A DNA stretch of 64,000 nt, from contig CM119372.1 in NCBI GenBank assembly GCA_051294905.1, forward strand, positions 8,186,001 through 8,250,000, read 5' to 3'. How positions within the stretch are numbered: position 1 is the stretch's first letter; the number at the start of each line of letters is the position of its first letter. The position numbers were made by a program, and so were the translations under genes. The DNA comes from Botryllus schlosseri (Eukaryota). The notes below the pieces were generated by a model. It was not told where the DNA came from. It saw nothing but the letters and a program-made list of their open reading frames with translations, and searched no databases. Positions 7,627-62,128 of the stretch are shown here, piece by piece.

Positions 7627-9321
7627 TCACACCGAAAGGTAACTGGTTATCTTCGCAGGCGGGGCGTACGAGGCGAGCCTTGACACCCACGGAAGTTTTA
7701 CCGACGGTATGTGCGAAAGGAGCTTATGAACGAGAATTTGTACCACGATAAATAACTTACAAAACAGTAACTTCACTTCTTCCGCGATCTTTTCTTTGGC
7801 GTCTAACAGTGTTTCTACGATGTCGTAGCAGTTCGCGCGGGTCGCTTTTTCGAGCTCGCACACTATAGCCGACATTTTCGCCAACAGCCATCGTAAATTC
7901 GCGGGCACCAGGGAAACGTGCTTCATAACGAAAAGAGCTAAGGAAAATGATTTTTCTAGCGAAGCACGTGTGATTGATAGAGGTTTACCGCAAAGAGACG
8001 CCAGTTTTCCGATACCGGTACTAATGCGTCCCTTCTGATCTAACTGACACTCTTCCAAAGCCTTCATGACCACGTGCGGTAAATTGGAATGTAAAATATG
8101 ATCTAGTTCTTCCGCCGAGGAAGGCAAGTCTACTATAGTGGCGATCGGGAGAAATTTAAACAGCGGGTTGTCTTCAAGGTATTCTTTCAGTGGGTTCGTC
8201 GTAGCCTCCATGTCATCCGAAGTAGCCGTCGACGAATCCTCGTCACTGTCAATGTATTTCGTTGTGTCTTCCGATAAGCATGCATCGCTATCGCCGGTGC
8301 TAGCGACATCAGAGCGACGATCGTAGCTCATCGTGAGATAATCGCTGTCGGAGTGTTCGGATCCGGTTTCGTCTTCTTCCCGACACACTTCGTCAATGAA
8401 ACAATTGTTACTGGACTGCATAGCCATCCATTGAGACGACATCGACATTTTTCTGAACTGCTTACGTCTGGCTTCGACGTGCTCCAATTCGCCGGAGAAC
8501 GACATGCTCTTTTGAGTCGGGTTGACCGTCTCAAACAAACCGTGATCTACTAAATACCTCAGCGCTTCGCGAAAGCCTTGCTTGCAAAAATCGCTCAATA
8601 TTTTGCCCTCTGGTGGGAAAAGCATTCGGGACAGTCTCTGCAGATTTTTCACGGTCATCTGCACGCTGGTGTTGGCGATGTTGACGTCGAGGAGGTTATT
8701 CGCCGAGGAATCTCTCGGACAGATATCGCTACCTCCCGACCACGGAGAGATAGTGATTGTGTCAGAATCGGATGGTAAATTGTTTGTTAGCCCGCCGTCG
8801 ACGTAATAAACTCCTCTGTACGTGGGAGGTACGAATCCTGAGTAAAACGGGACAAAAGAACTACACAACAACGCGTCAATAAGTTCGTCTCTTGTGGCGT
8901 ATTCGCTGACGATAACATTTTTCATGTCGCTGACCCTCGTCAACGAAATGAACAGCTTGTTGTTGCATCGTTTATGCGCGTCCGGCGGAAGAACCCGTCG
9001 AAACCCGTCTCCAAGGATCTGACTTGGCCGAAATCCGGGGCTGAGCGGGCCTAAATACCGAGAACGGACGTTTTTTACGATGTCCAGCGTCGAACGGCAT
9101 AGCTCGCCCCCGCACACGTCCGAAAGTAGCATGGCCGCTATGATGGAGCCCGCGGAACATCCATAGATTTTCTTGATTCTCTTCAAAAACTCAGGCGCGT
9201 GTTGTCGCAAACAGCTGGCCACTCCGATGTGATAGACCCCGAGAAAACCGCAGCCCGAAAATGACAGATTTTGCGGTTGGCAGCCAACATGTACGGTACT
9301 GCATTTTCGATCCAGCACCAT
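7627..9321 (-). CDS. PNPLA2: Patatin-like phospholipase domain protein, PNPLA2/ATGL-like triglyceride lipase (564 aa, single coding exon)
   Basis: NLSFSGCGFLGVYHIGV oxyanion loop, GCSAG nucleophile elbow, YVDGG catalytic Asp, FVPFYSGFVPP and TITISPWSGGSDICPRD motifs typical of PNPLA2/3/4. Upstream acceptor ttctttcttccag at 9358-9370 and candidate donor gtaagtg at 9821 suggest a 5'UTR intron. Confidence 0.92.
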   Translation of the reverse strand: MVLDRKCSTVHVGCQPQNLSFSGCGFLGVYHIGVASCLRQHAPEFLKRIKKIYGCSAGSIIAAMLLSDVCGGELCRSTLDIVKNVRSRYLGPLSPGFRPSQILGDGFRRVLPPDAHKRCNNKLFISLTRVSDMKNVIVSEYATRDELIDALLCSSFVPFYSGFVPPTYRGVYYVDGGLTNNLPSDSDTITISPWSGGSDICPRDSSANNLLDVNIANTSVQMTVKNLQRLSRMLFPPEGKILSDFCKQGFREALRYLVDHGLFETVNPTQKSMSFSGELEHVEARRKQFRKMSMSSQWMAMQSSNNCFIDEVCREEDETGSEHSDSDYLTMSYDRRSDVASTGDSDACLSEDTTKYIDSDEDSSTATSDDMEATTNPLKEYLEDNPLFKFLPIATIVDLPSSAEELDHILHSNLPHVVMKALEECQLDQKGRISTGIGKLASLCGKPLSITRASLEKSFSLALFVMKHVSLVPANLRWLLAKMSAIVCELEKATRANCYDIVETLLDAKEKIAEEVKLLFCKLFIVVQILVHKLLSHIPSVKLPWVSRLASYAPPAKITSYLSV

Positions 9322-10651
9322 TTCCCGAGACGGAGTAAAATTAGCGATAATTATTAGCTGGAAGAAAGAATAGGCACAGAATTACAGTCGGGTCAGCGGC
9401 CTAACATCTGAATAGTACTTGTAATCATAGGCTATAAATTATCTGATTTTCGCGCGGCAGGTACAAGTTATCGACTAGGTGTTTTACTGTTTTATTACAA
9501 CTCACTTATTATACTCGGGAAGTCATTACTGTTCTGTTCATATTAGTCGCCTCCACTGCGATTGTGTTTCCAGTATAATTGCAAACTTGTCATGAACGAA
9601 TACAGCTGTCTATCTGGTTGCTAATTATCCACAATTCAGTACCAACGTAACAGCACAATATCGAACGAATTATGTTCGCGAATAATACCTAAATTCGCAC
9701 CATTTGCATGAGCAAAAAACGATGGTCTTGCCGCTTCGAGACCTGATCACGGTAATAAGCGAACGTGAAATTAGGCTGTCTCACTGGCTTAAATTCCGCA
9801 CTGGACGAACTTTGCACTTACAAGACAGATACCGCACAACAGCGAGTATACAGACTGCAAATGTAAACGAACACAATCTCTATAATAATACCAAAGTCTC
9901 TCTTATGCTAGGTCAATGAACGACTATACCCGACACGCCCGCTTCGAGCCCTCTGACGCGAATAGCGCGTTCGGAAGGCGTATCATAGCGTGAGTGTGCC
10001 GCTCGCTCAGTCTTAGCTAGGCTGCTATCGCGCCACCGAGTTTATAATAGGTCAAATGTCTCTGGAACTGCGGTCGGAATTTCAAAATCGAACCATTGTC
10101 CGATCTCAGAATTATGTAATAGATAGGCACCTGCTTCTCAATGGATGGAATTATATGTACTAGCATATTTTGACAAATGTCAAATGACCTATCAACCCTA
10201 ATCGCAGTGCACTTTGAACAGATCTCGTAATGCCAATACATATGGGTGCATCGTATCCAATTAGTGTCAAAATCACTCTCAAGCATATAAATCATGCGTA
10301 GAACGAGTTAACTCATCGCATTTTGACTTTTGAGTCCCGATATAATTAATTGTGGAACGCGTATAGTAGGCATTCATAGTATTGTTTGACACCGCCGATT
10401 GGTTAACTTTGAAAAAATTCAGCGCAGTGCTCATCAATAGTGCACAAAATTCCCCGCTGCAAGCTCTGACGTATGTGTGCCTCGCGTCAATCCTGAAATA
10501 TGCTTCATATGTCCAAAGTATGTGTGCGACAATGTGACGCACAGTGATTGATCACTTTCAGTCTGTATTCACCTAACCACAAGAAGCTTTCATTACTGAT
10601 ATCGCAGAACTACACCGGTGCGACATAAATGATGCCGAGTTATATCTTAAC

Positions 10652-19049: not shown

Positions 19050-22000
19050 TTACAACTTTTTACAGCAGAACCGGACTTTATAGTCTTCGCACTGCGCATC
19101 CCCCTGCTTGTAATTATGGCAGCTTAAACCGAACCGAATTCCAATTTTGACAGTTTCTCCCGATTCCGTATAAGCCGTATTGTTCTTCACGAGCTTGGCT
19201 TGGATAGCGGTGGGTCGCATGCAGACGGCAGTCCGGTTTCCTCTTCTAATTCGATTGAGATATTCCAGGTCTCCGGTCCCGCTTTTTGGATTGTCGATGT
19301 TAAACCAGGCTGTCCATTGGCTGTCTTTGCACGTGCCGACTTGCCCAGCAACTGTTGAAAATTGTAATTTTTGAAGTGAAACTATGATAACAATTTATTT
19401 CAAAAGAAATCGTAATTTTACGGGAATTCACAGTGATTTTGTAATCATTCTTTGACTTCACAATTGATTTGATCTTACGGAGCACCATTCACGCAATGGG
19501 TAATATGTAGGGTTACCATACGTCCTCATTTAGGAGTGTTTGCCCTCCTTTTTCGGGTTTTTGAAAATGTCCTCCAAGGACGCCTAAATGTCCTCCTTTT
19601 TGAGATTTTGTCCTCTTTTTGAGGTCTCTGGGTCAAATTTATAGCGAAATTCGACTGAGATGCCGCAAATCAGCACCGAAGTGACGCCGAGTGGACAAAC
19701 GACCTTTTTTTTTAGTCAACTACCTGATAAAGTGAAGGAAAAAACAGTATTTTGGTCGCTGAGCGAGAAAGACCTTTTTTTTAAGTCAACCGACTACGAA
19801 GTGGAAAAAATGTACCATTTTTTCAGTATAGGCTATTCCATCGGTATTATAAGTTTGAAAAGTTTGAAAAAGTGTCCTCCCTTTCCGTTTCCAAAATATG
19901 GTAACCCCATAATATGTAACTCAGATATCAGGAATGCTTGACATATCTGATATATACAGAGACTATATAGTCTATCTGTTCAAGTATATGCTTTGCTTAT
20001 GGTTTTCACGCTCGACTACCATGCAGCAAGGCAATCTGAGTTGAGATTTATTAATATAATATGTGTTGGAAGAGTTGACAAATTTTCCTCATGACACTGA
20101 CAGTCACTCACGCTTTTTTGGTTTCGTCACTTGAACTCTGAACATAGTCGACACTTGTCTCGATCTACCCTTGTTTTCTTCGGCATTGCAATTCGAGACG
20201 ACGTTATATAAAACCGTTTTCGACCTCATAACCATTGCCAGCTTTTGCGAGAGACACTGAGGTGCATTAATGGCTTTCATTACGATCGGTTTTGACGGCA
20301 GAATATTTATAATTCCGTTGCTGGATAAACGGAAGTTAATGCGCCCGCCGGACGCTTGTGATATGATCTTTTTGAGGTTAGTAGCTCTTTTCGATCTCGT
20401 CGAAGTTCTGTTCTGCAGACCGATGTCACTTTGCGAGCAACTTCGTATGTATTCTGTTCTGATCTGCGTAATTCTACATAAGATCAAAACATATAGTTCT
20501 TCGGTAAACTCACAGATACTCACTTGCACTCAGAACGATGTTTGTTAAGGAATCTCACTAGTTGTCCGATTTTGTAGGATGGTTTGAACATCTCAGTTCC
20601 CGGCTTGGTGATGATGACTGCTGTCTGTAGGAAAGCGGTATTTGAAAGACACTGGACATAATTCGTTTCCGATCCAGGGCATCCGAGCATTGGTTCAAAC
20701 TTTTGATAAATCGGAGGACGATACACCGGCGGCTCCACGTTTTCACAACGGGTCGACGATCCCTTCGGAGCTATTAAGAGTTGCAAAGTAAATTCACCTC
20801 ATATTAATTATACTTTCGTGTGCGATGAAGAAATTGGTTGCCCGACATATGAGCATGCGACACAATGGAAAACGACAGTTCAGCATGGAACACATCAGCA
20901 TGCGTCACTTCAGCATGTGACTGTATAACCCAAAAACTTACCCTAACCCGAAGCATAGCCTAACCTAACCTAACCTAGCCTAACCTAGCCTAAACCCTAA
21001 CCCTAACCCAACCATCAACCTAACCTAACCTACCCCTAACCCGTAATTTAACCCACATGCCCATGTGTCGCATGCCAAATTGTCGCATGCCGAAGTGTCG
21101 CATGCTGTAATGTCGCATGCTCATATGTCCACGGACCGAAGAAATTGGGACTTTCTTATTAAACCGAATGCGACTGCCATTTTCTGTGACTCCAAACGCC
21201 ATTCCTTTATTGGTTATACTCGTAGCTTTCATTGGCGTTAAAATCGAGTAACACTAAAAAGACTTACTCATGTACTTGACAATGCAATTCTTCACGTGCG
21301 GATATTTGTACGAATTAGGCTTTATGAGATATTTCAGATTGTCCAGCCAGCATTCTAAACCTTTCTCTCTTAAACAGATTTCACATCAGCAAATAACACA
21401 AGAATTCATCACTATATGTTCATCCAATGACGGATATACCTGCAGAAAAATGTGTCGGTAGCATAATACCAGGTGTCATCCCAGACCACGTAGTCGACCA
21501 GGGTTTTCCAACGAACACTCACGCCCGCCAACTTCTTGGAGAGGCATTCCGTGAAAAACGGCCTGACACTTTTCGGAACGCCTTTCCCGCCTTGGCACTT
21601 CGGACGACATCCTTGAAAACAGGCAAATTTTGTGGGCAGAGCATAATTTGATATGCAAAGCGACATTTCCATATTCCACCAGCCTCTGCCTGTCTTTTCC
21701 ATAACATATATTATACATTCCACATACTTCCTACTTTCTCAGTGTCCCGACATCTCATATACATTTATATTTTGCTGTGTGGATACCCTTCAGTGTTTAC
21801 ATGCTAATGACTGTGGATGGAATTATGCACTGTGCATTCCTGATACATCAATTCCACCGCCAATATTGTTGTGAGACGTATCAACGATTTAGGTAACTTC
21901 ATCATTGAAGACAGCTAAGATAAATATAAAGGACTCTTTTGGACTTAAATAGAAGCGAGTTGGACTCAAGACATGCAAAACTAGTGTGTGAACGCATTGC

Positions 22001-22763
22001 TGACCTGCAGTGAGGATGATCGGAAAATTATATAAACCAAAGTTGTTGTCGCATTATAAAATCTCTTAAAATACAACTTTGTATTGCAGCAATCCTCCCT
22101 CCTTGGGTATGTTGTGATAGCGGGTCAACTTATCCCCGTGACATATACACAGATGATATTCAGTAGGTTCATTAGTCTACACGAGATGTGTCAACTCATT
22201 ATTTGTGAGTTGGAGATTTATCGATCCGATCGGGATCAGGGGTGTCTGACAAAAGCCTCGAAAGAAAGTGTCTATGAAGGGGGTATATTCTACCGATACT
22301 ATATTAAAGTAGCTAAGGTATTCATCATGCTGCCTATATTTCCTGAGATATTTCTTGAGATACTTAGAATATAACCAGTCCCACCCGGTTACCCCCTTTC
22401 CTGGCCACTTTCGTCAAGATGGATGGATGGATTGGATACCCCCTTAACGGATACGCCCCGCACTAGCATGACGATATTTCTGATACCTTAGTTAGTTAGT
22501 AGCCTAGGCTTCCGAATATTTCGTATACTGTCTCCTTAACCCCTATAGTAACTTTATGTTACTTGAGATGATGTATAAGTGTTTAGGCGGCCGGGTAATT
22601 GGGATCATGTGATACTATATATACAGCCGACACCATGCTATTTCCTTGTCGCGGGGAAACTAACAGCCTGCTTTAGGTTACCTTGCGTCTCCTCAAAAAA
22701 CAATAACACCACAATGTATATTGCGAAGCGTCTGCATATCATCGTGGATCCAGCGGGTTTCAT
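19050..22763 (-). CDS. Gene A: secreted protein with two novel Cys modules and a C-terminal WxxW/CysD domain (421 aa). Exons 22763-22682, 21611-21440, 21368-21268, 20770-20524, 20473-20112, 19351-19050
   Basis: All introns are GT-AG with phases 1,2,1,2,1; the 1266-nt splice is open to TAA. Signal peptide MKPAGSTMICRRFAIYIVVLLFFEETQG; RSKR site; last exon C..SQWTAWFNIDNPKSGTGDLE...C..PTAIQAK...GLSC.N..Q...CEDYKVRFCC matches the mucin/CILP WxxW domain. Confidence 0.85.
19508..19909. mobile_element. MITE of the tagggttacc family, in intron 5 of gene A
   Basis: Termini tagggttaccata / atggtaacccca; flanking duplication taatatg; tgtcctc repeats; relatives at 26521-27320, 41158-42578 and 48698-49020. 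Confidence 0.85.
20836..21137. mobile_element. Mutator-like MITE with internal telomere-like (CCTAA)n, in intron 3 of gene A
   Basis: Perfect 9-bp TSD gaagaaatt; GG..CC termini; inverted gacatatgagcatgcgaca; internal ccctaa/cctaa repeats; second copy at 40278-41147. Confidence 0.85.
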
Positions 22764-23139
22764 CTAACGGACGTTTACCGCTACCCATCCAGGAACTTGT
22801 CTGTCGTCTCTAATATAGCACATTTGCCTCCGGGGTTTGATTTAAACGCTAGCAATAGCGTATATCTACACTGTAGATTCTAAAGAGAGTGATATCATCC
22901 ATACCGATGAAATTCAACACCTGTAGTGTCAGTGTCATTACACAGCTTGACACGCGTGACTTTGTGAGATATTGATTGAACGCGGAAACTACGTAAATGA
23001 CGTCAACGACATCATACGCATTAGGCAATGTTTAAATATATAATTCTTGTTTTATCGAGAGGCAAATAGCAACTTGAAATTTTATACCGTATATACTTCA
23101 AACAAATAAAAGGAGACACACCACAGACAGGTTTATTAC

Positions 23140-23292
23140 TAATACCGAGAATACTATTACCGAGATGGACACCTCCGAAAATACTATTACCGAGAATGGA
23201 CATTACCGAGAATGTATATTACCGAGAATGGACATTACCAAGAAAGGCAACGACCAAGAATGGACATTACCGAGAAGGACATTACAGAGAAC
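23140..23292 (+). repeat. Array of ~16-bp repeats (ggacattaccgagaat), inverted partner of 25048-25225
   Basis: About 9 degenerate copies; the reverse-complement array lies at 25048-25225. Confidence 0.75.
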
Positions 23293-25047: not shown

Positions 25048-25225
25048 TCCTCGGTATTGTCCATTCTAGGTCATGTCTTTCTCGGTAATGTTCATTATCA
25101 GTAACAGCATTCTCGGTATTGCACATTCTCGGAAATATACATTCTCGGTTGTGTCCATCTCGGTAAAAGCATTCTCGGTTGTGTCCAATGTCCATATCGG
25201 TAATAGCATTCTCGGTATTGACCGG
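25048..25225 (-). repeat. Array of ~16-bp repeats (attctcggtaatgtcc)
   Basis: Reverse complement of the 23140-23292 unit. Confidence 0.75.
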
Positions 25226-25734: not shown

Positions 25735-28700
25735 TCATGCGGTGCACGATAAGAAAAGATTTCGGAGTTCTGAATCATTTTTCACCAGACGGATCATAAC
25801 AGTGTCCAGGCAAGTCTTCGCTGAGTTGCTTCGCGCTTGAAGAAGACTGCATGCTCGGGATGGCTCATTCGTCGTGGGATCGATCGTCTTTTCACTTCTA
25901 GATAAATGAGGATGGGTGTTCGTATTAGTTCATTCCTCAAATTACAGATATCTATGCTCAAATGCGACTTCAGTCCTTCCTTTTCATTAATACATGAATA
26001 AACAGTGCTCAGTCAATTTACCGCTTCGGAACTATTAGAGTAAGAAACCGTGATTCATTGCCCATCCGACATAACTATTTTTGATCACGATCATTTGTGC
26101 TAAAGTCATAGTCAGGCATATTGCAATCGGCAAAGACGACGCGGTCCGCAAATCAATAATTAAGTTACTGCGTTGAAAATTATATATCCGTGTATAAAAT
26201 AGCTGAGTAGGCTTAGTCATGCAATAACAGGGTACGGCAGATAACATAACTTACGAGCAAGGCGATGCATACTCTTGAAAGAACCGGATTACCGACGCCA
26301 TGTCATCCTTAGAACGGGGCTGCATGTTAATCGACAGAGATCGCATGCTTGACATATAAGGATTTTCCACCGATGTAGTGACGCACCGTTCAAACCTTGA
26401 TTCCGAAGCGTCATCGCAGCGCTGAGATGTCACAAATGGCGCAATGCCTAAAATGCATGCCTCGGTTAATGACTCGTACAGATTGCAGATGGCAGTTTCG
26501 CAAAATTATTCCCGAATTATTAGGGTTACCATGTTTTGGAAATTTGAAGAGAGGACACTTTTCCAAAATTTCCGGACTTACAATACTGGAATAAAATCCT
26601 GAAAAATTGGTAAATTTTTTCCGACTTTGTGGTCGGTTAACTGAAAAAAAGGTAATTTTTCTGGATCACGCCCGGGAAAACCCGTCGGTCCGTTACTTGG
26701 CCGCTGATTTCCTATATCTCAGTCCTATTTCCACGTAAATTTAACCAAAATCCTCAGAAAAGGGGACAAATTCTCAAAAAAGAGCACATTTAGGCGTCCT
26801 CCGAGGACACTTTCAAAAAAGTCAAAAAAGAGGACAAATCCTCAGAAAAGAGGACGTATGGTAACTAGGGTTGCATTTATAACAAACGGTGTTTTAAAAC
26901 ACTTTGTTTTAAACTTGTTTTAAACAGTGTTTCAAAAAAAGGCCTTTAAAAAATTGTTTTTTTAAGCAGTAAAATTATGCCATAATTGTGTCATTACTTT
27001 AAAAAAACATTTTATGAGCCTACGGACAATGACCACCCGATGTTGCCGACGTATATCGAAATGGGATGGTTGGAACCTTCAAAATAGTCGGTTCAACAGC
27101 AATAGTACATATATTTCGTCAAATGAGCTATTTCTACCCTATATTTTCAATTGTCAAGGTCAATCCCCTATGACGTCACAATTGAATATTCGTGACGTCA
27201 TGGCTTTGTTAAAAAACACATAAAAAACAATAAAAAACATGTTTTAAATTAGGGCCTTGTTTTAAACATGTTTGTTTTGAATTGATTTTCGTTTTAAATG
27301 CAACCCTGATGGTAACCCTACCGATTACGAGCTAACCGAGCTTACGTCGGAGTCAGTCCATCTTCCGCGTAGGCTATAACTTGTTACAGACATGCAGGTC
27401 GCAGACATTGTATTTGAAAATATGTAGGCCATTACACAGAATTTAGTTTGGTAAAATAGGTATGTTACCTGACGACGGATATCTGCCTGGAGCGGTGGAT
27501 ATAAACGGACTTTTCGTTCTTGTCGGCTGCCAGCTGCCACCATATTGAAACGGTCCGCTGGTTGGCGGAAGTGTCGTTTGCTGCGTCATACTGCGATAGT
27601 GTCGTAGCAAAAGCAACAGGTTCATGTCGTTCTGCGTCAGAGGCTGTCGTCTGTAACTGGACTCGTAATGCACTCTTGCCAGCGGTGTCCTAGTAGACAT
27701 CAGCGCCATTGTAGTTTGTTGAGTTGGTACCCGCCAATGATTCACTACAGGGGGTAGAGTAGTGGATTTAGATGTAACATGTGGTCGCTGAGTCACGGAA
27801 GCGTGCGGGTTAAGCCAACTTGGCAGTGTGGATGGGGTAGGGTGACCTGGGGATATAAATCGCGGTGCCACAACCGGCGCCTGTGTTCTCGCGGGAGGAA
27901 CAAAAACAGGCGCAACAGTTCTATGCGGATTGTGCTGCACGGGCGCTGGTTGTTGTGGGCGGTACGAAGGAGCCCTCGGAGGAACATATGGGATACTTGG
28001 ATAGGTGGCCTGTTGTGGAGCTGTCGTAGGCGATGTTGTTTGCTGCGCGCTGTTTTGAGATAACCTCTGCCTTCGAAACCAGGAGAGCCAAAATGTAGAT
28101 CCCACATCCCTCTTTCGACGACCTGACCTCGCAACTGCGTGAAAATTAAAACAAATATTAGGTTACACGACATCTGATTCGTCAATCTCGGAAAAGTCAT
28201 TAGTAGGTGTCGTTCAGCAGTTGAAAAATACAACTCTATTTTGATAAAGGGCGTATACAAGTGTGCCGAGATTGGCGTACCTCAGCGGTTTCTATGATTT
28301 TCATCCGCCCAAGACACACAATGTACACGAAATGCAATGCATAATGCGATGTTATGACCAGCTATGAGGATGTCGAAACCACCAAGAACGGTCTATCATT
28401 CTTGCATCCACATCACCTAATCGTTAGCTCCATCATTATACAATACATTAACATTGCACACTCACAAAGAACTCACGAATGTTGTCACCGGCGGAAATTG
28501 GAGGGAAAGGGCAAATGCGATCATGCGATCACCACCGATTTTCGCATTTTCTACAGAGTGAGGAGGATGTTGTTGGCCATGTCACGATGTATATGCGACG
28601 TCATCTCCCTAATGAAGTTTTTATTTTTGTTCCCGTATCAAATTGAAATGTGCTTACGCCACCGTTTCTTCACTTTACTATGGAATCGATTTAGGTTAAC

Positions 28701-30675
28701 GGAGGCGCGGTCAAAATTGACCTGCTCGCAAAGAAGAACGCATGCGCTAGATGGTATCATTGAGCTATAAAAGTTTGATCATTTTTATGATGTACGATTG
28801 TACGCCACATTACACTCCCGTACGCTAAGGTACGCAACGCATCCTAGTTTGTATCTAATGTTATCGAATCGAAGCTTGAAACAGGGCAGGCTCACCTTGG
28901 AGTCGAGAAATATTGTCTTTAAATCGAGGTGTGGTTCGACCTCCGGTACTAGCATATTCGCGAATGCATTCGCTGATATGCCGTATATATACCGATGTTG
29001 GGTCGACGAGGAATTTCACTTGCCCGCGCCAACATTCGTCGGTGTCACGCTCCCCCCTGAAATAAAATTAGAATGTTTCTCTCTTTAAATCTCGATGTGC
29101 ATTGCGTTCCAACAAGGAAATCACGGCTGAATTGAATTAGAATTTTAGGATTTCAAGACTTCGTGCTTTTTTTTTGGGTCACTGCATGCGTATTCGTTCC
29201 CATTAAACCGCTTTTGTCATTGTTACATTACTACTATATCGTATACAACTATACATACCAATGTATATACATTTGGATTTTATTGACTGAGATGTAGCAT
29301 CAATAATTATGTACTGAAATGAGGCCATGGAACATGAAAGTTTAAAATGACTTGGTTTGGCCTAAGTTGAACTGCGCGGTATATTGTTGACATTTGGACG
29401 CTGTCTAGATCGTAGTTACACAATGACACGTATTCTTCGGCACATAACAATTTCTCGGAATTGTAAAACGGATTTGGTCAATTCAAAATTATATAGACCC
29501 AATGCGAGTGGCTTTAATGAGCTGGTGAAACCTGATCCATGCGTAATTACGCTTCCGTGTCTGTATTTATCCTAAGATCCATTGTTTATAGCCGTCTATA
29601 AATCTAATTACCGTCAATCAAATTGGCCTGCGGGTAAGAGTGCAGGGTCAAGCGAAATCATTATCTTCGGAGGGTATTTCAAACTGACAAAATTGATCCT
29701 TTCGCGACCTTGTAATTAAGTCGTGCGGTTTCCGTTTGGGGCTTAATGCGACCACTTGTGTCAGTATATACTCCACAAAGCGAAGAATCGCTAAACAAAG
29801 TATGGCATACCGTCGCGCTGTGGACTCGATTACATTTCGGTAATTCAAACTTTAGAGTTGCATTTCCGGCAGTAAACATCTGATTAGTATGCACTTTCAC
29901 AGGAACTGCGGCGGAAATTAGAATAAGAGAAACGGTCTTTGTGCGATATATTTTCGCAGCACGTCCACGATGATATAAGCGAGTATAATACAGGCGTTAA
30001 ATCCTTCCGTTGTTACGTCCTTGGCGCAATAAAAATATGCAAACCGGGTAAATGTGTAGCCAAGGGGATTACAAGGGAGGATCATAAACTTTGTACATGT
30101 GTACTATTACTTGAAGCATAGAATTGTATGTACAGGTAATAACATATAGTCTGCATTTTGGTCGTCAATACTTTGAAAGTAGAAGTTATATTCGACACAA
30201 TGTCATTGCCCCATGCTCGGACAACGTTTTCCGTGTATTTAGTGAAGGATATTATCCATCACCAAATATACGAAATTTCGATTCGGACGGTAACTGAGAA
30301 TGTACGACTCGTATCTTTCAAAACTAACTTTCCAATCCCGCTACACGTCACGCACTTACCCACAGTATGCGTAGCTGCTCTCATCGTACCACGTGGTATC
30401 TTCCACCGTGAATCTTACTACAGCTTCCCAGCGAAAGTCCTTCCCTGCCCTGTCTGATAAGCACTTCGAGAAGAACGATGTCAAGGTGCCGCTAGTACCT
30501 ATTCCGAGAGATCTGGTACTGGATCTTCTTTTGATCGTATGGCAACCTACAACAAAACACGACTTTGATTACATCATTATCAACTAAAGCGGCATGTGCG
30601 ATTTGCGTGCTGATACGTACCTTGGGAAGTCGACATCATCATGAAAAATATTGGTAATATTGCTATGCGGATCAT
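25735..30675 (-). CDS. Gene B: secreted paralog with two novel Cys modules separated by a Pro/Thr/Gln-rich mucin-like exon (474 aa). Exons 30675-30621, 30546-30360, 29056-28896, 28134-27469, 26447-26255, 25897-25735
   Basis: GT-AG introns, phases 1,2,1,1,2; the 1425-nt splice is open to TGA. Signal peptide MIRIAILPIFFMMMSTSQG; FFSKCLS...RWEAVVRFTVEDTTWY...YCG; ECWRGQVKFLV...ECIREY; RRKR site; AATAAA ~280 nt downstream (25449-25454). Confidence 0.85.
26521..27320. mobile_element. tagggttacc-family MITE with a second MITE (26866-27308) inserted in its terminal repeat, in intron 4 of gene B
   Basis: Inner TIRs tagggttgcattt / aaatgcaaccctg; perfect TSD atggtaac, which is part of the outer TIR atggtaacccta. 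Confidence 0.85.
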
Positions 30676-40277: not shown

Positions 40278-41147
40278 GGTCTGTGGGCATATGTGCATGC
40301 GACATTATAGTATGCGACACTTGAGCATGCGACACATGAGCATGTTGGTTAAATTACGGGTTACGGGTGGGTTAGGGTTGGATTTAGGGTTGGGTTAGGG
40401 CAGGGTTGTAATGACTCGAGTCATGACTCGACTCGAATACGATACGAATCGCGATTTTCTGATGAGTCGAGTTGACTCGAGTAATTTTCTCAAAATACTG
40501 AAATGACTCGACTCGACTCGACTCAAGTCAATCTGTATATTGACTCGACTTGGACTCGAGTCATTGCTCATGACTCGGACCAAGTCATATGGCTCGAGTC
40601 TCATCGGCCAAGACCGACATTTCATTGTAATTTCGAAGATTAGTAAAGAAACCACACTGTTGATATTTCACCTGTTGGCACTGGTACTTGAAAATGCAGT
40701 CAGAAACTGGTAAAAGTATGAAAAATTGGTATATTTTAAATGCGAATCATTTGATATCACCGAAGAGTTATAAGAAGTGGTCGTAACAAGACTTCAACTC
40801 GAAACTGAGCAGTCAACGCAATGACTCGGACTCGAGTCATAATACCATGGCTCGGACTTGGCCCTCTGCTCACTGACTAGGTTTGGGACTTGACTCGGTG
40901 GTGATTTAAAAATGACTCGACTTGACTCGAGTCAAATCTATGAAAGTGACATTGACTTGTGACTCGGACCCTGGGTTACGGTAAGACGTGTGGTTAGGAT
41001 ATATATATGGGTTAATTTCAGGATTATGTTTCGGGTTAGGGTTAGTTTTTTGGGTTACAAAGTCACATGCTGAAGTGACGCATGCTAAATTGTCCCATGT
41101 TCAACTGTCGTTTTCAATTGCGTCGCATGCTCATATGTCAGGCAACT
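40278..41147. mobile_element. Mutator-like MITE with TTAGGG-like interior, interrupted by a gactcga-repeat MITE (40401-40973)
   Basis: 9-bp TSD gcgtatagg; inverted copy of 20836-21137. Inner element cagggttg...ggaccctg with TSD ggttaggg / ggttacgg. Confidence 0.8.
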
Positions 41148-47012: not shown

Positions 47013-50000
47013 ATGGGGATATCATGCAATATTTTGTGCTACACGGCAGCTGCGCTGGTACTGTATGTCTCCGTTAGTAACGGTGAGCTTAGACAATGAG
47101 TACCAGAAAATATTACCTCATATAATCATAAGAGCGTGTTCAAAATAACTTAAATGAGGGTTTATCGCGCTAATTTCTATTTGGTAGAGAGACGTGGTGA
47201 GGCTATCCATGATTCACTGGTATAAACTCAAATGAAAGTTGCAACATTCTACATCTACGCGTTATTTCGATTCGATTTCCCCATCATGTACATTAGAGTT
47301 GCTCAAAATTAACTTTTTTCAATTTTTTTCGGCTATTAGCTAGAATTGTTAGTTTGACTAAAAACACGTTGCACACCAAATTTGGCTCTATTTCTACAAG
47401 TATCAGTGAAGCTATTAAAGTTGGAAAATTTTGAATTTATTATAAAAAATTGGAAAATTTTCGAACTCTAATCGCTTAATTCGACCATTTTTGGTCCGCT
47501 TACTTTTGACTGAATTCAGCGAAGAAACATCTTTATCCGAATTAAACGGAGAATGAATTGTTGGTTTCGTGGTCATTGGTCAATGGTGATGCATAAAGGC
47601 ATGCACGCAATCCGGTAGAAATACTTTACTGTTGCGTAATAAATGAATTGCAGCTGCGTTATACTGCAGTAATCGGTACTGATCGCATGAAACGTACTAG
47701 AGTTATACCTTCAGGATAGTTGTATGTACAATATTTTTATATATAGGAATTCAACAGATACTGTATTACTGTGTAATTAACTCATTTAGGATTATAATAT
47801 TCCAGTTATTCTTCGAATGTGGTAGTAGCCATGCAGAAACGGCCTAAACGGTATTCTCACTTGAAAAATCCACACCACGAAACAGTGGGAATAAAAATCA
47901 AAAAGCTATTAGCGGGGCACAATATTATTATTGGAAATGCTATCAACGCTAATTGAATGCTAAATCCACCAAACCAACGGTCCCGTACGCTTACGTTGCG
48001 GCTGCGTCTTGAATTTGGCGTCAAGTGAATTTGAATAACTGCATGATGATGCCACATCCTGTTCTACAAGATGGACGCAATTGTGTCCTTGCATGAGCTC
48101 ATTGTCGATTGTTACTTCATGGATCGCCTTTGTCTCGCACTAATCACTCATCTTGTATTAAAACGAACGAAGTAGGCCTACTACGTATTTCGTCATAACC
48201 AAAGGATAGAAATAGCGAGAATGAGTTCGAATTATCCAAAGTTTTTTACGTGCAATTTTAACTTTTGTTTCGTACCCGAGCATTTTGGTAGAATAAGACG
48301 GTTGTGCGGGTTATCCGGTGTTCGAATTAAAGGAGCACTGCACTCTAAAAATGATGTGTTCTCAAATTTAAGGGCAAAATGAAAAAAAAAATTTGGCCAC
48401 AGCCATTTTCTTTAGAACGCCACCGTAATGGAGCTGCAATTTATTGAAATTTCCATATAGAACCTTCAAGCTCCAGCTGCCACGGCAGCGCGTCATCGTC
48501 TCTTGACCCGTTGATAAAATTTATGGCGCGACATCTTCACCGTCGCACTTGCTCGACGCGATTAGGCAATCACTTAGAGAACAAACTTTAGATAGCTGTC
48601 AGCCGATATTATGAAGGAATTTTGTCTTACACACCAGGGTGGTTTAGTTACGTTAAGTATAGGCGTAATGTACCGGCGCTCAACGTATGATGTTAAGTAG
48701 GGTTACCATACGTGTTCTTTTAAGAGGATTTGTCCTCTTTTTTGACTTTTTTGAAAGTGTCCTCGGAGGACGCCCTTTTGTCCTCTTTTTTGAGATATTG
48801 TCCTCTTTTCTGAGAATTTTGGTCATATTTATAGCCCAATTCGACTGAGATGCCGTAAATCAGCACCGAAGTGACGCTCCGGCGGGTATTTCGGGAGCTG
48901 AGCGGAAAGTTGACCTTTTTATTTTTTTACTCAACCGACCACAAAGTGGGACAAATTTACCATTTTGTCAGAATTCTCCTCCGGTTTTGCAAGTCTGAAA
49001 ATTCTGAAAAAGTGTCCTGAGGATTTGTGTCATGACTTTATAATATTTGCCAGTTGCCTGATACTGAGATGCCATTACAGTTGTATATTTATGCAAAGCT
49101 ATCTATAGAGCTGTAATTTTCAAGCTGTAATTTCAGTCCACAACCTTTAGAGTAGGACATGATCTATTTTTGTCCTAAAGAAATAGAATACACTAGGTCC
49201 GATTTAGACATAAATCTCCTGACTGAACTGAACATCGTCCGTTGAACGCCGTATCTAAACCACCTTCGCGTGTAAGACATATTTCCTTCATAACATCGGC
49301 TGTAAACTGAGTGACTGCCTAATCGCGTCGAGCAAGTGCGATGGTGAAGACATTCTGTCATGTAACGAGTTAAGAAATGACGCGCAGCCGCGACAGCTGG
49401 AGTGTGAAGGTCCTGTGTAAATTTCAATAAATTGCAGCTCCATTACGGTGGCGTTCTGAAGAAAATGGCTGGGGTCAATTTTTTTTCGTTTTGCCCTTCA
49501 ATTTGAGACCACATCATTTTTAGAGTGTAGTGCCCCTTTAAGCGGAGTTGAATGTATATAATTTCGGATAACTTCAGTAACCCTCAACATGCAGCTTGCC
49601 ACATCGCGGCGCACACGAAGCCAACCGCCCCGCTGGATTTTAGTGGCAGGAAGAAAAGAAGTGCGGATTGCGCTAACTGTGCGGAGGATGTCGACGAAGA
49701 GTTATCCGCATTCTTTACCGAGTGCATGGAGAGGAAACGTCCGCAACAATTCAAATCGTGGCGGGGGGTGGTGAACTTCGTCTTGCGAGACAGTCTGTGG
49801 TACACCGCGACTGACAGATCATACTGCAGGTAAGACAATTTGCGATGGTGGCAAATGTATTTCGACGTAGTGCCTGTCAGAGTTGAATCAATTACATTAA
49901 ATCAGTTTAATTACGATTACAATTACTCCCTTGCATGTTTTAATTACATTACAATAACAATTACTCCATGCCAAAAATATCAAATTACAATTACAATTAC

Positions 50001-56000: not shown

Positions 56001-59000
56001 GTCATTTTAAGGTTTTTAAACTTCCTGCACCGTGTATTTCAAGCTCTCTTATTGAATTTTCTATTAACTATGACGTCACATTGATCCATCATTCAATTCA
56101 TAATAGTTGGTTGTTAGTTAGTAACGATCATCTTCTCAGTCTCAGTTAGTCAGTATTGGCCACAGAAAGCAATCTCAAATTCCTTTTCGTTTTGTTCTGT
56201 TAATGCGCTGATTGTGGACCTAATTAGTATAATCTCATTATAAATGTCAACATCACAAATGAAATCTACCAGCTTGCTGTTTTTGCCATATCTGTGGCCT
56301 GCATATCAGTTTGACAAGTTAAGTACAAAATATAGTTAGAACTATAAGTTTTTTTTTTATGCTTAACTGTACTTTGGCATGAAAATTGGAGACAAAGATA
56401 AAAACTGGGCATTCCATGTAATCTGTGAAACATGCCGATGAAATGTGGATGGATGGCTAGGGGAAGATCGACATTCAATGTCATTTGCTATTGAAGAATC
56501 TGAAGGGAATTTCGAAACCTTATATGTGACTACAATTTCTGCATGCACTCCAAGATTCAGAATAACTAAACAATGACTTGACATTGCATATCCTTCTATG
56601 CCATCTCCTCTTAAGCACCTGCTCCGTATTGCAGTAAGTTTTCACTGCCCAAACTATGAGGCAAAAAAGCTCCAGAAGAGTCGACAGGGCTTAAAGATAC
56701 AGAAAACGACTCCAAAGACGACTTCAACATATCTCATATAGCTATTAATCCAGAACCACGCGAAATTGATGATTTAGTTGGGATTCAAAAATCTAATGCG
56801 GAAATTCGGACTCCAAGGTTGAACTAGGGAACTTGTTGCGTTCATCGTGTCGATGTCCTTCGTCGAGAAAAGTGCATGAACGATTTTCAGGGTATTTTTC
56901 TGTGGCAGGTTCTCCTTGCCTATGCGGCAATGTGGGCAATCTTTTGTAAAGCACTTGACAATAAAATGACTGCGGGAAAAGCAGGAGCATTCAAGGCATT
57001 TCGAGATGTAATTGTGCATATTCTTTCTTTTTGTTAGTGCATTCATATTACAGGGCAATTTTTGAGTAAAACGCGAAATCAGAAAAAGTGACATTTCTCA
57101 AAGTCTAGGGACAGTTCAGAAGAAAATTTTGTATTTTAGTGATTGGTTTGGAATAGCAAAACACAATACATAAAAATTTTTACTCAACTGAAATTTTGCA
57201 AAATTTTATTACATGGTGTTATTTGTGGTCCATAGGGAGAGAAGATTTCTCATTTCACAGAAGCAAGTCACGCAAACAAAACTACTTCTGACAATTTTTA
57301 AAGTGTTGCATTGTTACATGATGCATGAGTAAGCTATATTTGTTCATATTATCCTTTTCATTAACGTTTTCTTTCGTCCAATAAAGAATTATTGTGATCA
57401 ATATCGAGCAATTATGAGTAAAATCAAAAATTAGAGAAATTGACATTTCTTCAAAATTTGGGACACTTCAGAAAAAATTATGGTATTTTGGTAATTAGTT
57501 TGGAATACTAAAACACAATACATCAATAATTTTGCAAAATTTTGTTACATGGTGTGATCTATTCATTACGACGAGCAAATTACATTGGGTGTGTGTGGCG
57601 AGATAGCGTAGTGGTTTAATCCACAGCTGCAACACAAATGCGCTGCGGGTTCGAGTTCAACCGAGGTCGACTCCAGCATTCCTTCGTACGTGTTGGAGGT
57701 TTATCTATAGGCTCCTCCTCGCCATATCATCCAGGAAAGCGGTGTCTTGAAAAAGTCTAGAAGTGGGCCGTGCGACAAGTCGGCAGCTACGGAATAAAAA
57801 TGAAGAAAATTGGCTTGCTGAAAAGGACCATAGTAGTCGACAAACACCGTGAATACCAAAAACAAAACATTGGTTGTTTGTGTTATAAAATAATAAACAG
57901 AGCTTTGGCAGGAATTGAATCGGCGTCTCGGGTCTATTAAGATGCTTGGAATCACTGCACTGGATTCTAATCTCTGAACGGAAGTGTATTCAGTCCATTT
58001 CTATCGTAGTGTGCAAATCAGGTCAATAACACTTTCTGGTACGAAATCTTGCTCCCACACCTGTTCCAGATGGAGAAAATGAGACAAATACACCAATTCA
58101 TATAGGGGTATGGAAATTCTAGAGTAGGTTCTGTTTGCGTGTACCACGTTTTAGGATAGTATAATGCAAGCTTTAGTCGTTAAGGGTGTCACTGTATATA
58201 AATAACCGGGCAGTGATAAGTTGTATTACATAAATAATATTTAATTATGATATTTATTATTTACTCGCTATAGCGACCCCTAATGATTCATCCGAATTTG
58301 GCGAACATTGCAAGCGATGTTATACCTGCATGTTATGGACAACTTTCGGCAGGCTTATTTCCAAATCCCGCAGTTCACAGACAAAGAGTTTCTATGAGTT
58401 TAGTAAGTAGGCTATAGATATCACAATTGAATGTTCGGTTTCCAATTTCGATGCTATTACAAGACATTATCTAAAGAATTATCGACTGGTTCTCGATAAG
58501 CAAAGAGGAAGTCATCGGTTTTCGAATCGAGAGACAGAATCGCATGCCGGGTTCGGGGGATCAAGACTGTTAAAATCAATCAAACCGGATCGGATCCAAA
58601 AAATACTGCAATCCTCAACACATTCAACTCTTTGTACTCCTGCGCGCACAAATTCTCTCTCTTTCGCAACAGTGGCAGGAAGGACAGTGCTAAATGCTGG
58701 CAAAGACGGGTGATGTATTTGCTGCGATATGACTCGATGATTGTGGAGCCGACGAAATCGTGCATCAGCGAATACGACAGATCAATAAAAGATCTATGTA
58801 AGCGCTCATGGCACTTGTATTAGGTAGCCTATAGAAGGAACGGTTTATTTATGGTTGGTTCTCAACTGTGATGCGTAAAGGAAATAGTATTTTCTACTGG
58901 AACCTTCCGCTCAAAATGCGTAAACTGAATTGCGTTTCATCCAGACATGGATGCGACCTCTGTTCTCAGTATCTCGAAAAGAAAACATTATCGTTTAATT

Positions 59001-62000
59001 ATTGGGGGTAAACAGAATCGGTTCACAGTTGATTCGAATGACAAACCAATATTCATGCCAGTATCGAATCACTCTCTTAAAATTATGTTCAATAACTGGA
59101 ATAAAATGCCAATAATACTTCCAAAATACCGGTGTCTTGAATGAGCGAGTGTCTAGCAAGCACCCAATTCTCCACGTTTTAAGGGGACGTTGACCGCGCA
59201 ATTGATTCGAGCAAGTCAGTGGTGAGATAGGGTTGCTACTCAAGCAGAAGTATAGAAGAATCTATTTCCAAGACATGTCAAAACTACAACAAGTAGAAGT
59301 AGAAATGAAGATGTGAAAGTACTCAACTGAGTAGTTTCGAAAACTAGATTTGGCCAAGGGATCGCATACTTTTCGCAATTAATCGGAGGTGGTTACATAT
59401 ATACTTTCAAAATTGCAAGATTTATCTTGACGACTAACCCGACTACATAACAATACAAATATAGGTTCAAGCGCCTGTCGCCCCATTGGACACTCCACTG
59501 ACTCATACCTGAAAATTTGCAGACGGCACCGAATTTGAAGAATTCTACGTTAACAATTTCGACTCGTACGACTCATCTTCATCCATGGGAGAATTTCACC
59601 AGCTGATGAAGACCGCACAGCATACCATAGACTCGGCCATGGACCTTATCCGTGAGAAAGGGGCCACTATAAAAAAGCGGCTTTGTCCTTCCAAGTTCAA
59701 CAAAGGATTCTACCAGAAATGCGCCGCGTCTTCTTTCAATTCCAAGACGCACTCTATCTCTGATCAGTTTTCGCCATCGCAGCTCTTCGACCGCACGTCC
59801 GTCTTTGACTTCCTCAATACCGACTTTACAAGCTGCAGGTGAGAAGTTGATGCTGGTCGTTCCCGATTTGTTTCGGAAATTTCTGATATCGGTGTATACA
59901 TTTTGTTTCATCGCTGGCGAACGATAGATTCTCATACACGCAGAAAGTCTGGTGTAGAAGTTGAAAAGATATACTACGAGAAACCGAGCCATATCAAATC
60001 CAAATAGTGTTGATGGAACTGCAATGAGCGCCTCCAATATTTACAATACGGATAGGGATACTATATTCATTTTGTTTTTCTAATCAAGTACAAATACAAG
60101 TCCACGGACTCGAAATCGCGATCATTTACATGGAAATTTATGGTCATCACATCTCATGTCAATAATTGGAAGTTCATGCCCATGTAGACTATGCGACATA
60201 ATATCCCATTATGACTATATAATAATCAACTACCTCAAGGCTGTAGAACGTAATTTGGCGTATAGTTTCCAACATAAATGCATTTAACATATCTTCTCGA
60301 GAAATCGTGACTCAAGTCATTGAAATACGTAACGATTATGTTTTAAGACATACCCTTGCTACATTGTTCACAGGATATCTACTAAAGATCAAAACGGGAC
60401 AACTCTATACCAAGAGGATTGCCCCCTATCAGAAACAGCTACTGAAAGCACTTCGCTCGTCCATTCTGATATAGCGATTGTAACGCCTTGTCTTGTTTAC
60501 GATTATCGATCTATCGTGAGGTCCAATTCGCCGGGATATTCTTTAATTACGAGTTGCTATGAAAATGAAGGGTCCACTCTCACTCAATCTGAGACAGCGA
60601 CTAGCCCCGAAGCGCCGTTAACGGTACCGACGCCGATTTTGGAAAACTCCATACTACACAAAAATTTCAAGAATAAAAGTACGTACATTCGCAATTACAT
60701 TGTATATATACAGCAACGACGTGTTATAATCGGATCAGATTCAATATGCGGTGTCATGTGATGTTAACACAAAACAATATGCGAAATATTAAAGCAAAGG
60801 GAATGGAGTCGAGACCGCAGAGGTGCCATTGGATGGAAAGTAGATCCCAACGAAAACTCAGCAAATATACGAATAATCCACATACTCGACTGGGACTAAC
60901 GCTTAGCTCACGTATGCTCAGCAGTGTTGGGATCAAGTTACTACCTTTGAGTTATAAGTAATCTCGAGTCATTGCAAATTTTGACTCGAGGCAAGTCAAG
61001 TCATTCTATTATCGCAATCAGGGCATGTCACACAGGGCATGTCAGCGAGTACCTTGTACAGGTACAGCGACTTCGTTGACACCGATTACTTGATCAATTG
61101 AAATTGACTTGAAAATTTTGCTTCGAGTCACGGGCCAATCCATATTTTTGAAACGCCGAGTTAAGTTCAACTCAATACATTTTTGCCAAGTGACTCGAGT
61201 CAAGTGAAGTCATCTAAAAAGTTTACTCGAGTCGTTCCAACACTGATCCGCAGTGGAGATAAGAATTAGTTGATGACCAATGCTCTGAACTTTCAGTGAC
61301 TTGACTTTGAATATCCCCGTTGGCAATGTCTTAGTATATTTTTAAAATGTTATATTCTATTCTATTTATCATTATATCAGTCAATGGATGGCGTTTATCG
61401 GCCCTTGTCTGCTTCACAAACTACGAGTGATTAATAGACTATATGACAAGCTAATCAGATTTTTTACTGGTAACAACGAATTCGGCCATGATGATAAATT
61501 AACTAGGAGCATGGTCATTGGTCAAAAATCAGTTGTACCGGCAGATGTCTTCAGTGATCGGCTGAAAAATTCTTTCACCGCGGCCGTTCGTCACGATTAT
61601 AGATAGCCTATACGAGCAACTTATAAGGGCAAGGAATCGCAGGTATTACAAGCTATTTAAACGCGTGCGAATATTCTCATCAGTCGTTTATTGTGCAATA
61701 AGAGCGATCACTCAGCACCATATTCTTGCAATTGAAAAGTATCAGATCCAAGCCAACAACTGTAGATCGGCATTTCAATCGTTGAAAACAGTGAAATGAC
61801 CGTAAGCACCACCGTTTTCATTTTATCAGAAAGGATCGGCTCATGCGGTATGCTTAGCAAATGGACAAGTTATCACAACCTGGGCCCCCCAGACGAAATT
61901 GGAGACACGGAAACGCTGGAGGGACTGTTGAAATTCTATCCGGGCGCCGCATGCGAAAATCCAACGGCCGTGGAGGCGCGCACAGTCACAGATAACTCGA

Positions 62001-62128
62001 GCGGCGATGACGTATTTCTGTCGCTCACTGATGGCTTACGATGTCTACACGTGATGCAGAAAGGAAGATCATGCTCGGATTATAAAATACGATTTTGTTG
62101 CCGAATAATAAACTTTTGGGCAAAGTAA
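47013..62128 (+). CDS. Gene C: secreted paralog with two novel Cys modules and a C-terminal WxxW/CysD domain (449 aa). Exons 47013-47082, 49595-49829, 58673-58797, 59523-59838, 60374-60678, 61830-62128
   Basis: GT-AG introns, phases 1,2,1,2,1 (same as gene A); the 1350-nt splice is open to TAA. Signal peptide MGISCNILCYTAAALVLYVSVSNA; RKKR site; FFTECM...SWRGVVNFVLRDSLWYTATDRSYC; KCWQRRVMYLL...SCISEY; last exon KWTSYHN..PP..IGDTE...CENPTAVEAR...GLRC...Q...CSDYKIRFCC. Confidence 0.82.
48331..49537. mobile_element. TTAA-targeting non-autonomous element (Kolobok/T2-MITE-like) in intron 1 of gene C, with a truncated tagggttacc MITE inside (48698-~49020)
   Basis: ttaa|aggagcactgcactctaaaaatgatg ... 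catcatttttagagtgtagtgcccct|ttaa; inverted arms of more than 100 bp. Confidence 0.85.
50100..51100 (-). pseudogene. hAT (ZBED-type) transposase fragments
   Basis: ITHLKR (end of BED finger), DQLPLSIVASQTFRILL, and NVTRCNSQLVML (TRWNS motif), in broken frames. Confidence 0.75.
51345..51930. repeat. Inverted repeat / foldback MITE with ~165-bp arms
   Basis: gaatgtaaacatggaacggcaacgacc... at 51345 mirrors ...ggtcgttgccattccatgtttacattc ending at 51930. Confidence 0.8.
52515..52670. repeat. Minisatellite, ~41-45-bp unit x4 (ctatacggcgtttggcgtctg...gagacgcc), hairpin-forming
   Basis: Four visible copies, each with an internal ggcgtct / agacgcc inverted pair. Confidence 0.85.
53265..53475. repeat. 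Minisatellite, ~30-bp unit x6-7 (aaacaagcaacgaaaccacagtaaaagtc)
   Basis: Directly visible tandem copies. Confidence 0.85.
53720..55284. mobile_element. gactcga-repeat MITE containing a Buster-like MITE (53924-54620), both inside the hAT relic
   Basis: TIRs cagtgttgggat / atcccaacactg with TSD ggttggac / gtttggac; inner TIRs cagggctggtcaacc / ggttggccggccctg. Confidence 0.8.
55893..57556. mobile_element. Unclassified TIR element with coding relics, in intron 2 of gene C
   Basis: TIRs acaccatgtaacaaaa / ttttgttacatggtgt; right end duplicated (57060-57220 resembles 57410-57556); Cys-rich broken ORFs on the minus strand. Confidence 0.65.
57594..57870 (+). mobile_element. tRNA-derived SINE (type 2)
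   Basis: gtggcgagatagcgtagtggt ... ggttcgagttc; body matches 37352-37623. Confidence 0.8.
60922..61245. mobile_element. gactcga-repeat MITE in intron 5 of gene C
   Basis: TIRs cagtgttgg / ccaacactg; TSD atgctcag / atccgcag; related to 53720-55284. Confidence 0.8.

Follow-up and report, generated by a model that had tools for sequence, protein, structure and literature searches.

A two-module head in a family of ascidian proteins, probably derived from an old in-frame duplication of a two-exon cassette

A 64,000-nucleotide stretch of the Botryllus schlosseri genome (assembly GCA_051294905.1, contig CM119372.1, positions 8,186,001 to 8,250,000 of the forward strand; hereinafter referred to as the window, in whose own numbering positions are given) contains three paralogues, here termed genes A, B, and C. 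Each encodes two Cys-containing modules, and each module is split over two exons (M1a and M1b for module 1, M2a and M2b for module 2). The locus raises the question of whether the two modules are copies of one another and, if so, how and when the copy arose. The two modules form the N-terminal part of the encoded proteins (hereafter, the head). In order, the family proteins comprise a predicted signal peptide, a nearly invariant Cys-His at the predicted mature N-terminus, in many cases a furin-type RX(K/R)R site, module 1, a linker in which another such site is common, and module 2. Module 2 is followed either by nothing or by a variable extracellular domain (CysD/WxxW, TSP1, EGF, CUB, Sushi, or LDL-receptor repeats); the head of gene A is encoded by 20112-21611. 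The evidence presented here indicates that module 2 probably arose long ago as a tandem copy of module 1 and has since diverged, and that the two together form the head of a family of probably secreted proteins that has so far been seen only in ascidians.

The exon structure was established most fully for gene A. The segment 20112-21611 was found to cover exactly the two modules of this gene and to be flanked by phase-1 introns. Four public runs were mapped to the segment 19800-33800. Contigs of spliced RNA from X1 and X3 supported the joints 21440|21368, 21268|20770, and 20524|20473, and the joint 22682|21611 was supported by seven raw RNA reads of run X23 in addition to contigs of X1 and X3. 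All joint ends were CT..AC, corresponding to GT..AG on the minus strand, and the intron phases were 1, 2, 1, 2, and 1, with the phase-2 intron of each module located two bases after a Cys codon. The contig pieces ended at 20112, where the sequence is that of a phase-1 donor (C|GTGAGT), and the in-frame stop at 20104 therefore remains unused. The intron between M2a and M2b was only 50 bases long (20474-20523); it was revealed by RNA and could not have been guessed from the sequence alone, and because of it M2b also encodes a Cys-x12-Cys and a long insert ahead of its C-x21-C. For gene B, RNA supported the joints 30621|30546, 28896|28134, 27469|26447, and 26255|25897, and the joint 30360|29056 was placed on the basis of the sequence. 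An earlier sequence-only reading of this DNA had described each module as a two-exon cassette bounded by phase-1 introns, whose first exon ends in Cys-x at a phase-2 intron. This description held: all nine peptides that it quoted were located in the genes and frames given, including three ends of first exons, and RNA contigs confirmed the exon borders in genes A and B and gave phases 1-2-1 around each module.

The model of gene C was built from the sequence and from homology to P0005, a relative from Logan, without RNA, and it requires an intron of approximately 8.8 kb between its M1a and M1b. Together with the identity of only 30-40% between paralogues and the repeats found in introns, this would fit genes that are decaying copies or mis-joined exons, with modules that have no present function. 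Genes A and B, by contrast, were covered by spliced RNA contigs with canonical splice ends, the spliced frame was open in all three genes, and cysteines and motifs were kept in relatives from Styela; decay is thus a most improbable explanation. In gene C, the intron phases were again 1-2-1-2-1, and both P0005 and a paralogue just past the window (L004) pair the same two exon types, M1a and M1b.

To compare the modules, profiles were made from 26 sequences for module 1 and 25 for module 2. Genes A and B were included in both, and gene C was outside the module 2 alignment; its module 2 was placed by 40% identity to P0005 across both modules. The HMM-HMM (hidden Markov model) alignment that the sequence-only reading had proposed as a check of its duplication claim came out in favor of it: hhalign gave a probability of 95.5%, an E-value of 1.4e-8, and a score of 44.4 in a single colinear alignment (60-69 columns) that extended from the FFxxC helix up to the final Cys and paired the Cys at the end of M1a with that at the end of M2a. 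With the profiles trimmed to match columns, the real score was 43.7, and none of 300 column shuffles reached it (mean 9.3, standard deviation 1.9, maximum 16.1); the reversed alignment scored 7.7. The individual exons matched their counterparts only. M1a against M2a (score 22.0, E-value 3.3e-5) and M1b against M2b (score 30.6, E-value 3e-8) were each above all 60 shuffles, whereas the crossed pairs M1a-M2b and M1b-M2a were at background and were reached by 14 and 22 of 60 shuffles, respectively. Scores between the two exons of the same module were marginal (12.6 for M1a against M1b and 9.5 for M2a against M2b), and no repeat within a module is claimed. Intron positions were in accordance with the alignment. 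The phase-2 intron lies at the aligned Cys in both modules; directly after the M2a Cys it was also present in three of the four further paralogue loci that reach M2a, and a Cys-x donor followed M1a in most paralogue loci.

The spacing of cysteines had been the starting point of the sequence-only reading, which called a C-x21-C in the second exon of every module invariant. The six peptides concerned were all found in the window, in the respective genes and frames, with exactly 21 residues between the two Cys. For these six copies of genes A to C the word invariant is justified; for the family as a whole it is not. Among the 24 database relatives with a CW...C pattern, the spacing in module 1 was 21 in 20, and 19, 20, 20, and 22 in the others, while in module 2 it was 21 in only seven relatives and 22 in one, the first Cys being absent in most members from Ciona and Clavelina. 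The spacing is also common by chance. C-x21-C without an internal Cys or stop occurred 30 times in the six frames of the window, seven times in genes A to C, and the seventh of these was in exon M2a of gene A, beyond the six that had been quoted. The weight of the observation therefore rests on position and homology, and not on the count. M1b and M2b have the motif W-x2-R-h-x2-hh-x3-S-x-L-x5/6-C in common, which accounts for their equal hairpin length and hence for the spacing of 21 residues.

Structures were predicted by AlphaFold2 for two relatives, P0006 and P0009, with family alignments of only 26-29 sequences. The model of P0006 had a mean pLDDT of 79.4 and a pTM of 0.68. Its module 1 (pLDDT 95-98) contained helices at 62-76, 83-104, 114-126, and 133-151, and its module 2 (pLDDT 92-96) contained helices at 179-190, 207-216, 247-254, and 263-273, with an extra beta hairpin (222-237) that separates helix 2 from helix 3. 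In P0009, the relative nearest to gene A, the elements followed the same order at lower confidence. This order was alike in both modules, namely a helix with Cys, a helix, Cys, Cys, a helix, an S-x-L loop, and a helix with Cys. The models thus support modules of approximately 90-100 residues with four helices held by predicted disulfides, in line with the helical bundle that had been expected from the sequence. In Foldseek/VIA-align searches with both models, matches were confined to the C-terminal CysD and TSP1 domains, and the head had no clear match; the matches listed for it included no chain of a saposin, stanniocalcin, secretoglobin, cytokine, or vanabin. A sequence search of the PDB with alignment A1, to which M1a of gene A belongs, returned nothing below an E-value of 0.9, and the ESM Atlas gave no usable match. 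The missing match of the head is an absence only and is not evidence of a new fold.

The number of cysteines was always four in module 1 and ranged from four to six in module 2. In module 2, P0033 and P0025 had neither the first-helix Cys nor the final one and were the only sequences lacking either of them, and the first Cys of C-x21-C was present only alongside an extra Cys-Pro at the start of the module. This co-loss points to a putative pairing of helix 1 with helix 4 and to another partner for the first Cys of C-x21-C, so that, in module 2 at least, a direct bond between the two cysteines of C-x21-C is improbable. Since the counts are small and the sequences related, the pattern is a lead and not a result.

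Several observations weigh against a common origin of the modules or against the description of the head given above. When the untrimmed alignments were shuffled, three of 200 shuffles equaled or exceeded the real score, and outliers rose as high as 132; these were attributed to gap-rich insert columns. A plain module 1 HMM found module 2 weakly, with a best E-value of 4.5e-4 among 25 sequences and most others above 0.01. The predicted structures come from relatives at 40-43% identity rather than from the proteins of the window, several members have odd numbers of Cys, and the disulfide maps of modules 1 and 2 may differ. Gene A and P0009 have no RX[KR]R either before module 1 or in the linker between the modules; an RSKR or RGKR is found inside their module 2 insert instead. 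The modules could be unrelated Cys-containing helical regions that resemble each other in spacing, motif, and intron phase through chance or convergence. The weak sequence-to-profile match and the high chance frequency of C-x21-C would agree with this, as would the additional elements of module 2 (the hairpin and two more Cys) and the result of tblastn with gene A, which found no module 2 exon of gene B or C at E < 5. Such an origin is nevertheless quite improbable in view of the profile-profile match, colinear over both exons and unequaled in the 300 shuffles, the exon-by-exon correspondence, the intron at the aligned Cys, and the motif that the second exons have in common.

If the modules are homologous, the second may still have come from elsewhere. 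Exon shuffling in extracellular proteins classically involves phase 1-1 cassettes (Patthy's rule), and this family visibly shuffles its C-terminal domains, so that module 2 could have been gained as such a cassette from another gene. A protein from Clavelina (P0030, 134 residues) that has module 1 only would suit this origin, but it is possibly a truncated gene model. In every relative long enough to show the order, module 1 was followed by module 2, and no protein with module 2 alone or elsewhere was seen, though no search was made specifically for such proteins. We therefore regard gain from another gene as unlikely and favor duplication in place: a cassette that starts and ends in phase 1 can be duplicated in frame, and the profile match of the modules together with their identical 1-2-1 phases supports a duplication inside the ancestral gene. 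The sequence-only reading had placed this event before the triplication of the gene, which is true but understated. Both modules were present in proteins of Ciona, Clavelina, and Styela, and the duplication is thus older than the split between the ascidian orders.

The extent of the family was assessed in the B. schlosseri genome and in protein databases. A search of the genome with the M1a exon of gene A identified 17 M1a-like exons including those of A, B, and C, which had the motif FFxxC ... W.S[VI][VI]DF ... W[YF]..[TS]D...C in common; a CW-x20-C exon was found downstream in 10 of the 17 loci, within the 1.5 kb examined. Four loci were clustered on contig C5 and two were located just beyond the end of the window on the same contig (L004, G000:C2:8253371-8256514, and L006, G000:C2:8279158-8282283), so that the local cluster holds at least five family genes (A, B, C, L004, and L006). 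Gene C had its closest paralogue in L004, where both M1a and M1b were present. The module 1 signature (FFxxC, W.S[VI][VI]DF, W[YF]..[TS]D...C, and CW-x20-C) was carried by each of the three genes of the window. The module 2 signature ([YF]xxC helix, S..F[VL]..H..C, Cys hairpin, S-P/x-L loop helix, and final Cys) was also found, and genes A and B belong to the alignment of 25 module 2 sequences.

A profile of 16 M1a exons searched against 1.84 billion representative proteins retrieved 30 relatives at an E-value of 1e-3 or below, four of them at 1e-10 or below. The 19 with a species name were all ascidian (nine from Styela clava, eight from Clavelina lepadiformis, and two from Ciona), and the other 11 were unnamed sequences from Logan, ENA, or JGI. 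Named relatives were annotated as uncharacterized or after their C-terminal domain (e.g., cubilin-like or SCO-spondin-like), and none had a functional name. No Pfam family was detected at an E-value of 1 or below in the six exon peptides of the window, or at 0.01 or below in the heads (first ~250 residues) of 23 relatives; Pfam matches in relatives were confined to the tails (Mucin2_WxxW, TSP1, EGF, CUB, Sushi, Trefoil, and LDL-receptor class B). A search for longer homologous proteins with the M2a exon of gene A found none, and a family search with alignment A2 returned two proteins, both already known, and did not deepen the family alignment. In the literature, no paper on this head family, as judged by title or abstract, was found under the WxxW domain in ascidians or Ciona, or under four accession or locus names.

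The closest counterparts of individual genes had corresponding tails. P0009 (Styela clava XP_039267712, LOC120342798) was 43% identical to gene A over 308 residues, and both end in CysD, whereas P0029 (Styela XP_039267694, LOC120342784), like gene B, has a Pro-rich middle and no C-terminal domain. Other ascidian relatives included P0010 (Styela clava XP_039267313, LOC120342514), Ciona savignyi H2YVX0, Ciona intestinalis XP_026690409, and Clavelina lepadiformis XP_076809838. They share with genes A to C the layout of signal peptide, Cys-His, module 1 (FFxxC...CW-x20-C), and module 2; they differ in being diverged proteins of other species, and no source names the head domain or its function. 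The Styela relatives of A and B, together with P0017, had neighboring LOC numbers and shared one 25.6-Mb contig, a possible sign of a conserved cluster.

The features of the three genes are listed in Table 1.

Table 1. Exons and C-x21-C pairs of genes A, B, and C in the window.
Feature	Position	Strand	Description
Gene A exon 1	22682..22763	-	ATG at 22763 or 22742; signal-peptide-like hydrophobic N-terminus; phase-1 end
Gene A M1a (module 1, first exon)	21440..21611	-	FFTEC...W..LVDYV..D.TWY.ATD..FC; ends Cys-x, phase 2
Gene A M1b (module 1, second exon)	21268..21368	-	CW-x20-C; phase-1 end
Gene A M2a (module 2, first exon)	20524..20770	-	ends ...FLNKHRSEC-K, phase 2
Gene A M2b (module 2, second exon)	20112..20473	-	Cys-x12-Cys hairpin, long RSKR-containing insert, then C-x21-C
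Gene A last coding exon	19050..19351	-	mucin-type CysD (Mucin2_WxxW) and stop codon; borders from sequence
Gene A C-x21-C pair	21284-21352, 20188-20256	-	
Gene B exon 1	30621..30675	-	signal-peptide-like start MIRIAILPIFFMMMSTSQ; joint to M1a in X3 and one X23 read
Gene B M1a	30360..30546	-	Gly-Cys-His start, AYC-G end in phase 2; X3 contig piece 30359-30544
Gene B M1b	28896..29056	-	CW-x20-C; phase-1 end
Gene B linker exon between modules	27469..28134	-	222 codons, Pro/Thr/Gln-rich, begins GRRKR; RNA-supported
Gene B M2a	26255..26447	-	ends ...FFQEYASPC-S, phase 2
Gene B M2b	25735..25897	-	C-x21-C and stop codon
Gene B C-x21-C pair	28966-29034, 25744-25812	-	
Gene C M1a	49595..49829	+	Cys-His start, GRKKR, then FFTEC...WY.ATD..YC; phase-2 end
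Gene C M1b	58673..58797	+	CW-x20-C, across ~8.8 kb intron; putative link to M1a at 49595..49829
Gene C M2a	59523..59838	+	ends ...FLNTDFTSC-R, phase 2
Gene C M2b	60374..60678	+	hairpin CRISTKDQNGTTLYQEDC, then C-x21-C; phase-1 end
Gene C CysD (Mucin2_WxxW) exon	61829..62122	+	borders approximate
Gene C C-x21-C pair	58695-58763, 60489-60557	+	

Genes A and C end in a CysD exon. In tblastn, that of gene A was 55% identical to P0009 and that of gene C was 53% identical to P0005. Both matched Pfam PF13330 above its gathering score of 22.4 bits, with 84.4 bits (E-value 9.1e-24) for gene A at 19053-19349 on the minus strand and 59.4 bits (E-value 5.7e-16) for gene C at 61829-62119 on the plus strand. 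Gene B lacks a C-terminal domain, its stop codon following right after module 2, and its spliced frame was open like that of gene A.

Repeats were observed in and between the genes. The intron between M1b and M2a of gene A contained a composite repeat (20826-21138): a telomere-like stretch of (CCTAA/CCCTAA)n at 20959-21042, with an array of a 15-base unit (CATGCC.AA.TGTCG type) on either side. At 40295-40400, GGGTTAGGGTT was paired in a similar way with a GCATGCGACA-type array. The segment 20826-21138 had a very high RNA-contig word depth (1810 in X1), and some records skip it; it looks like a common and possibly mobile element. In gene B, the segment 26790-27310 of an intron was a highly repeated element with an RNA-contig word depth of up to 7406 in X1, many loose ends, one back-joint, and one opposite-strand joint. 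The stretch between genes A and B carried two tandem arrays, at 23137-23291 and 25050-25187, with periods of 15-16 and 31 bases (TACCGAGAATGGACAT type); they are in opposite orientation and approximately 1.8 kb apart, and may be the two ends of one inserted element. Elsewhere in the window, an unbroken frame of 584 codons (7627-9381, minus strand) encoded a patatin-like phospholipase domain (PF01734, E-value 1.5e-26) and is apparently an intron-poor PNPLA-type gene.

The N-terminal peptide and the linker of the head carried further recurrent features. Directly after the hydrophobic start, Cys-His was nearly invariant, often as Cys-His-x3-His and less often replaced by Cys-Arg or Cys-Gln. It was seen in relatives P0005-P0033, gene B (30546), and gene C (49595), and gene A starts with Cys-Arg. 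This peptide may be a metal-binding or thiol latch. Of 32 sequences, at least 22 had RX[KR]R ahead of module 1, a lower bound, as the regular expression mis-set the N-terminus in three of them; in the linker between the modules it occurred in 14 of 25 sequences. Gene C has GRKKR before module 1, and gene B has IKRR near the N-terminus and GRRKR after module 1.

From these features, we infer that the family proteins may be secreted, and that proprotein convertases may trim the N-terminal peptide and separate module 1 from module 2. The disulfides would be of the type that joins helix 1 to helix 4. The head would act as a unit of binding or assembly, tethered by the tails to mucus, tunic, or matrix; it may be the specific working part of the family, with CysD as the likely tether in genes A and C. 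In a bolder version, which we consider a long shot, module 1 would be a pro-ligand, freed in most members by furin-type sites on both of its sides, that is, a cytokine- or hormone-like signal of approximately 100 residues with four helices and two disulfides, so far confined to ascidians. Module 2 with its CysD, TSP1, or CUB tail would then be a matrix- or mucus-anchored carrier or pro-domain, Cys-His-x3-His a metal- or thiol-dependent latch removed on activation, and the head perhaps a fold without a solved representative.

A lineage-restricted pair of extracellular domains, left blank by current annotation, is hereby given a testable definition, and the locus provides an RNA-backed case of a phase 1-1 two-exon cassette that was duplicated in frame and kept throughout ascidian history. 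Because the head is joined to diverse adhesive tails and accompanied by convertase sites, the family proteins are candidates for processed constituents of mucus or tunic, or for a part in immune recognition, in ascidians, the invertebrates most closely related to vertebrates. In terms of general biology, the finding is modest: a new domain family, the origin of which is well supported.

Among known systems, the mucin CysD (PF13330; structures 6tm2 and 8oer of MUC2 and MUC5B CysD) compares with the C-terminal domain of these proteins and not with the two modules. CysD is described by Lang et al. (2016; PMC4948705) as a domain of gel-forming mucins carried between PTS regions. The family proteins differ from mucins in having neither a VWD-C8-TIL nor a PTS mucin core, gene B having only its Pro-rich exon. 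In the six exon peptides and 23 relatives, the head had no Pfam match to stanniocalcin or secretoglobin, nor to SapB_1 or SapB_2. To prosaposin and saposin-like proteins the likeness is of design only, namely small, disulfide-stapled helical modules in tandem within a secreted precursor with protease-cut linkers; the six-Cys pattern of saposins differs from the four Cys of module 1 and the four to six of module 2. Four-helix cytokines and hormones resemble the predicted head module in having approximately 100 residues, four helices, two likely disulfides, and often flanking dibasic sites, whereas the head module is part of a larger modular protein. The head is thus a new, lineage-restricted member of the disulfide-stapled extracellular modules that are spread by phase 1-1 exon cassettes.

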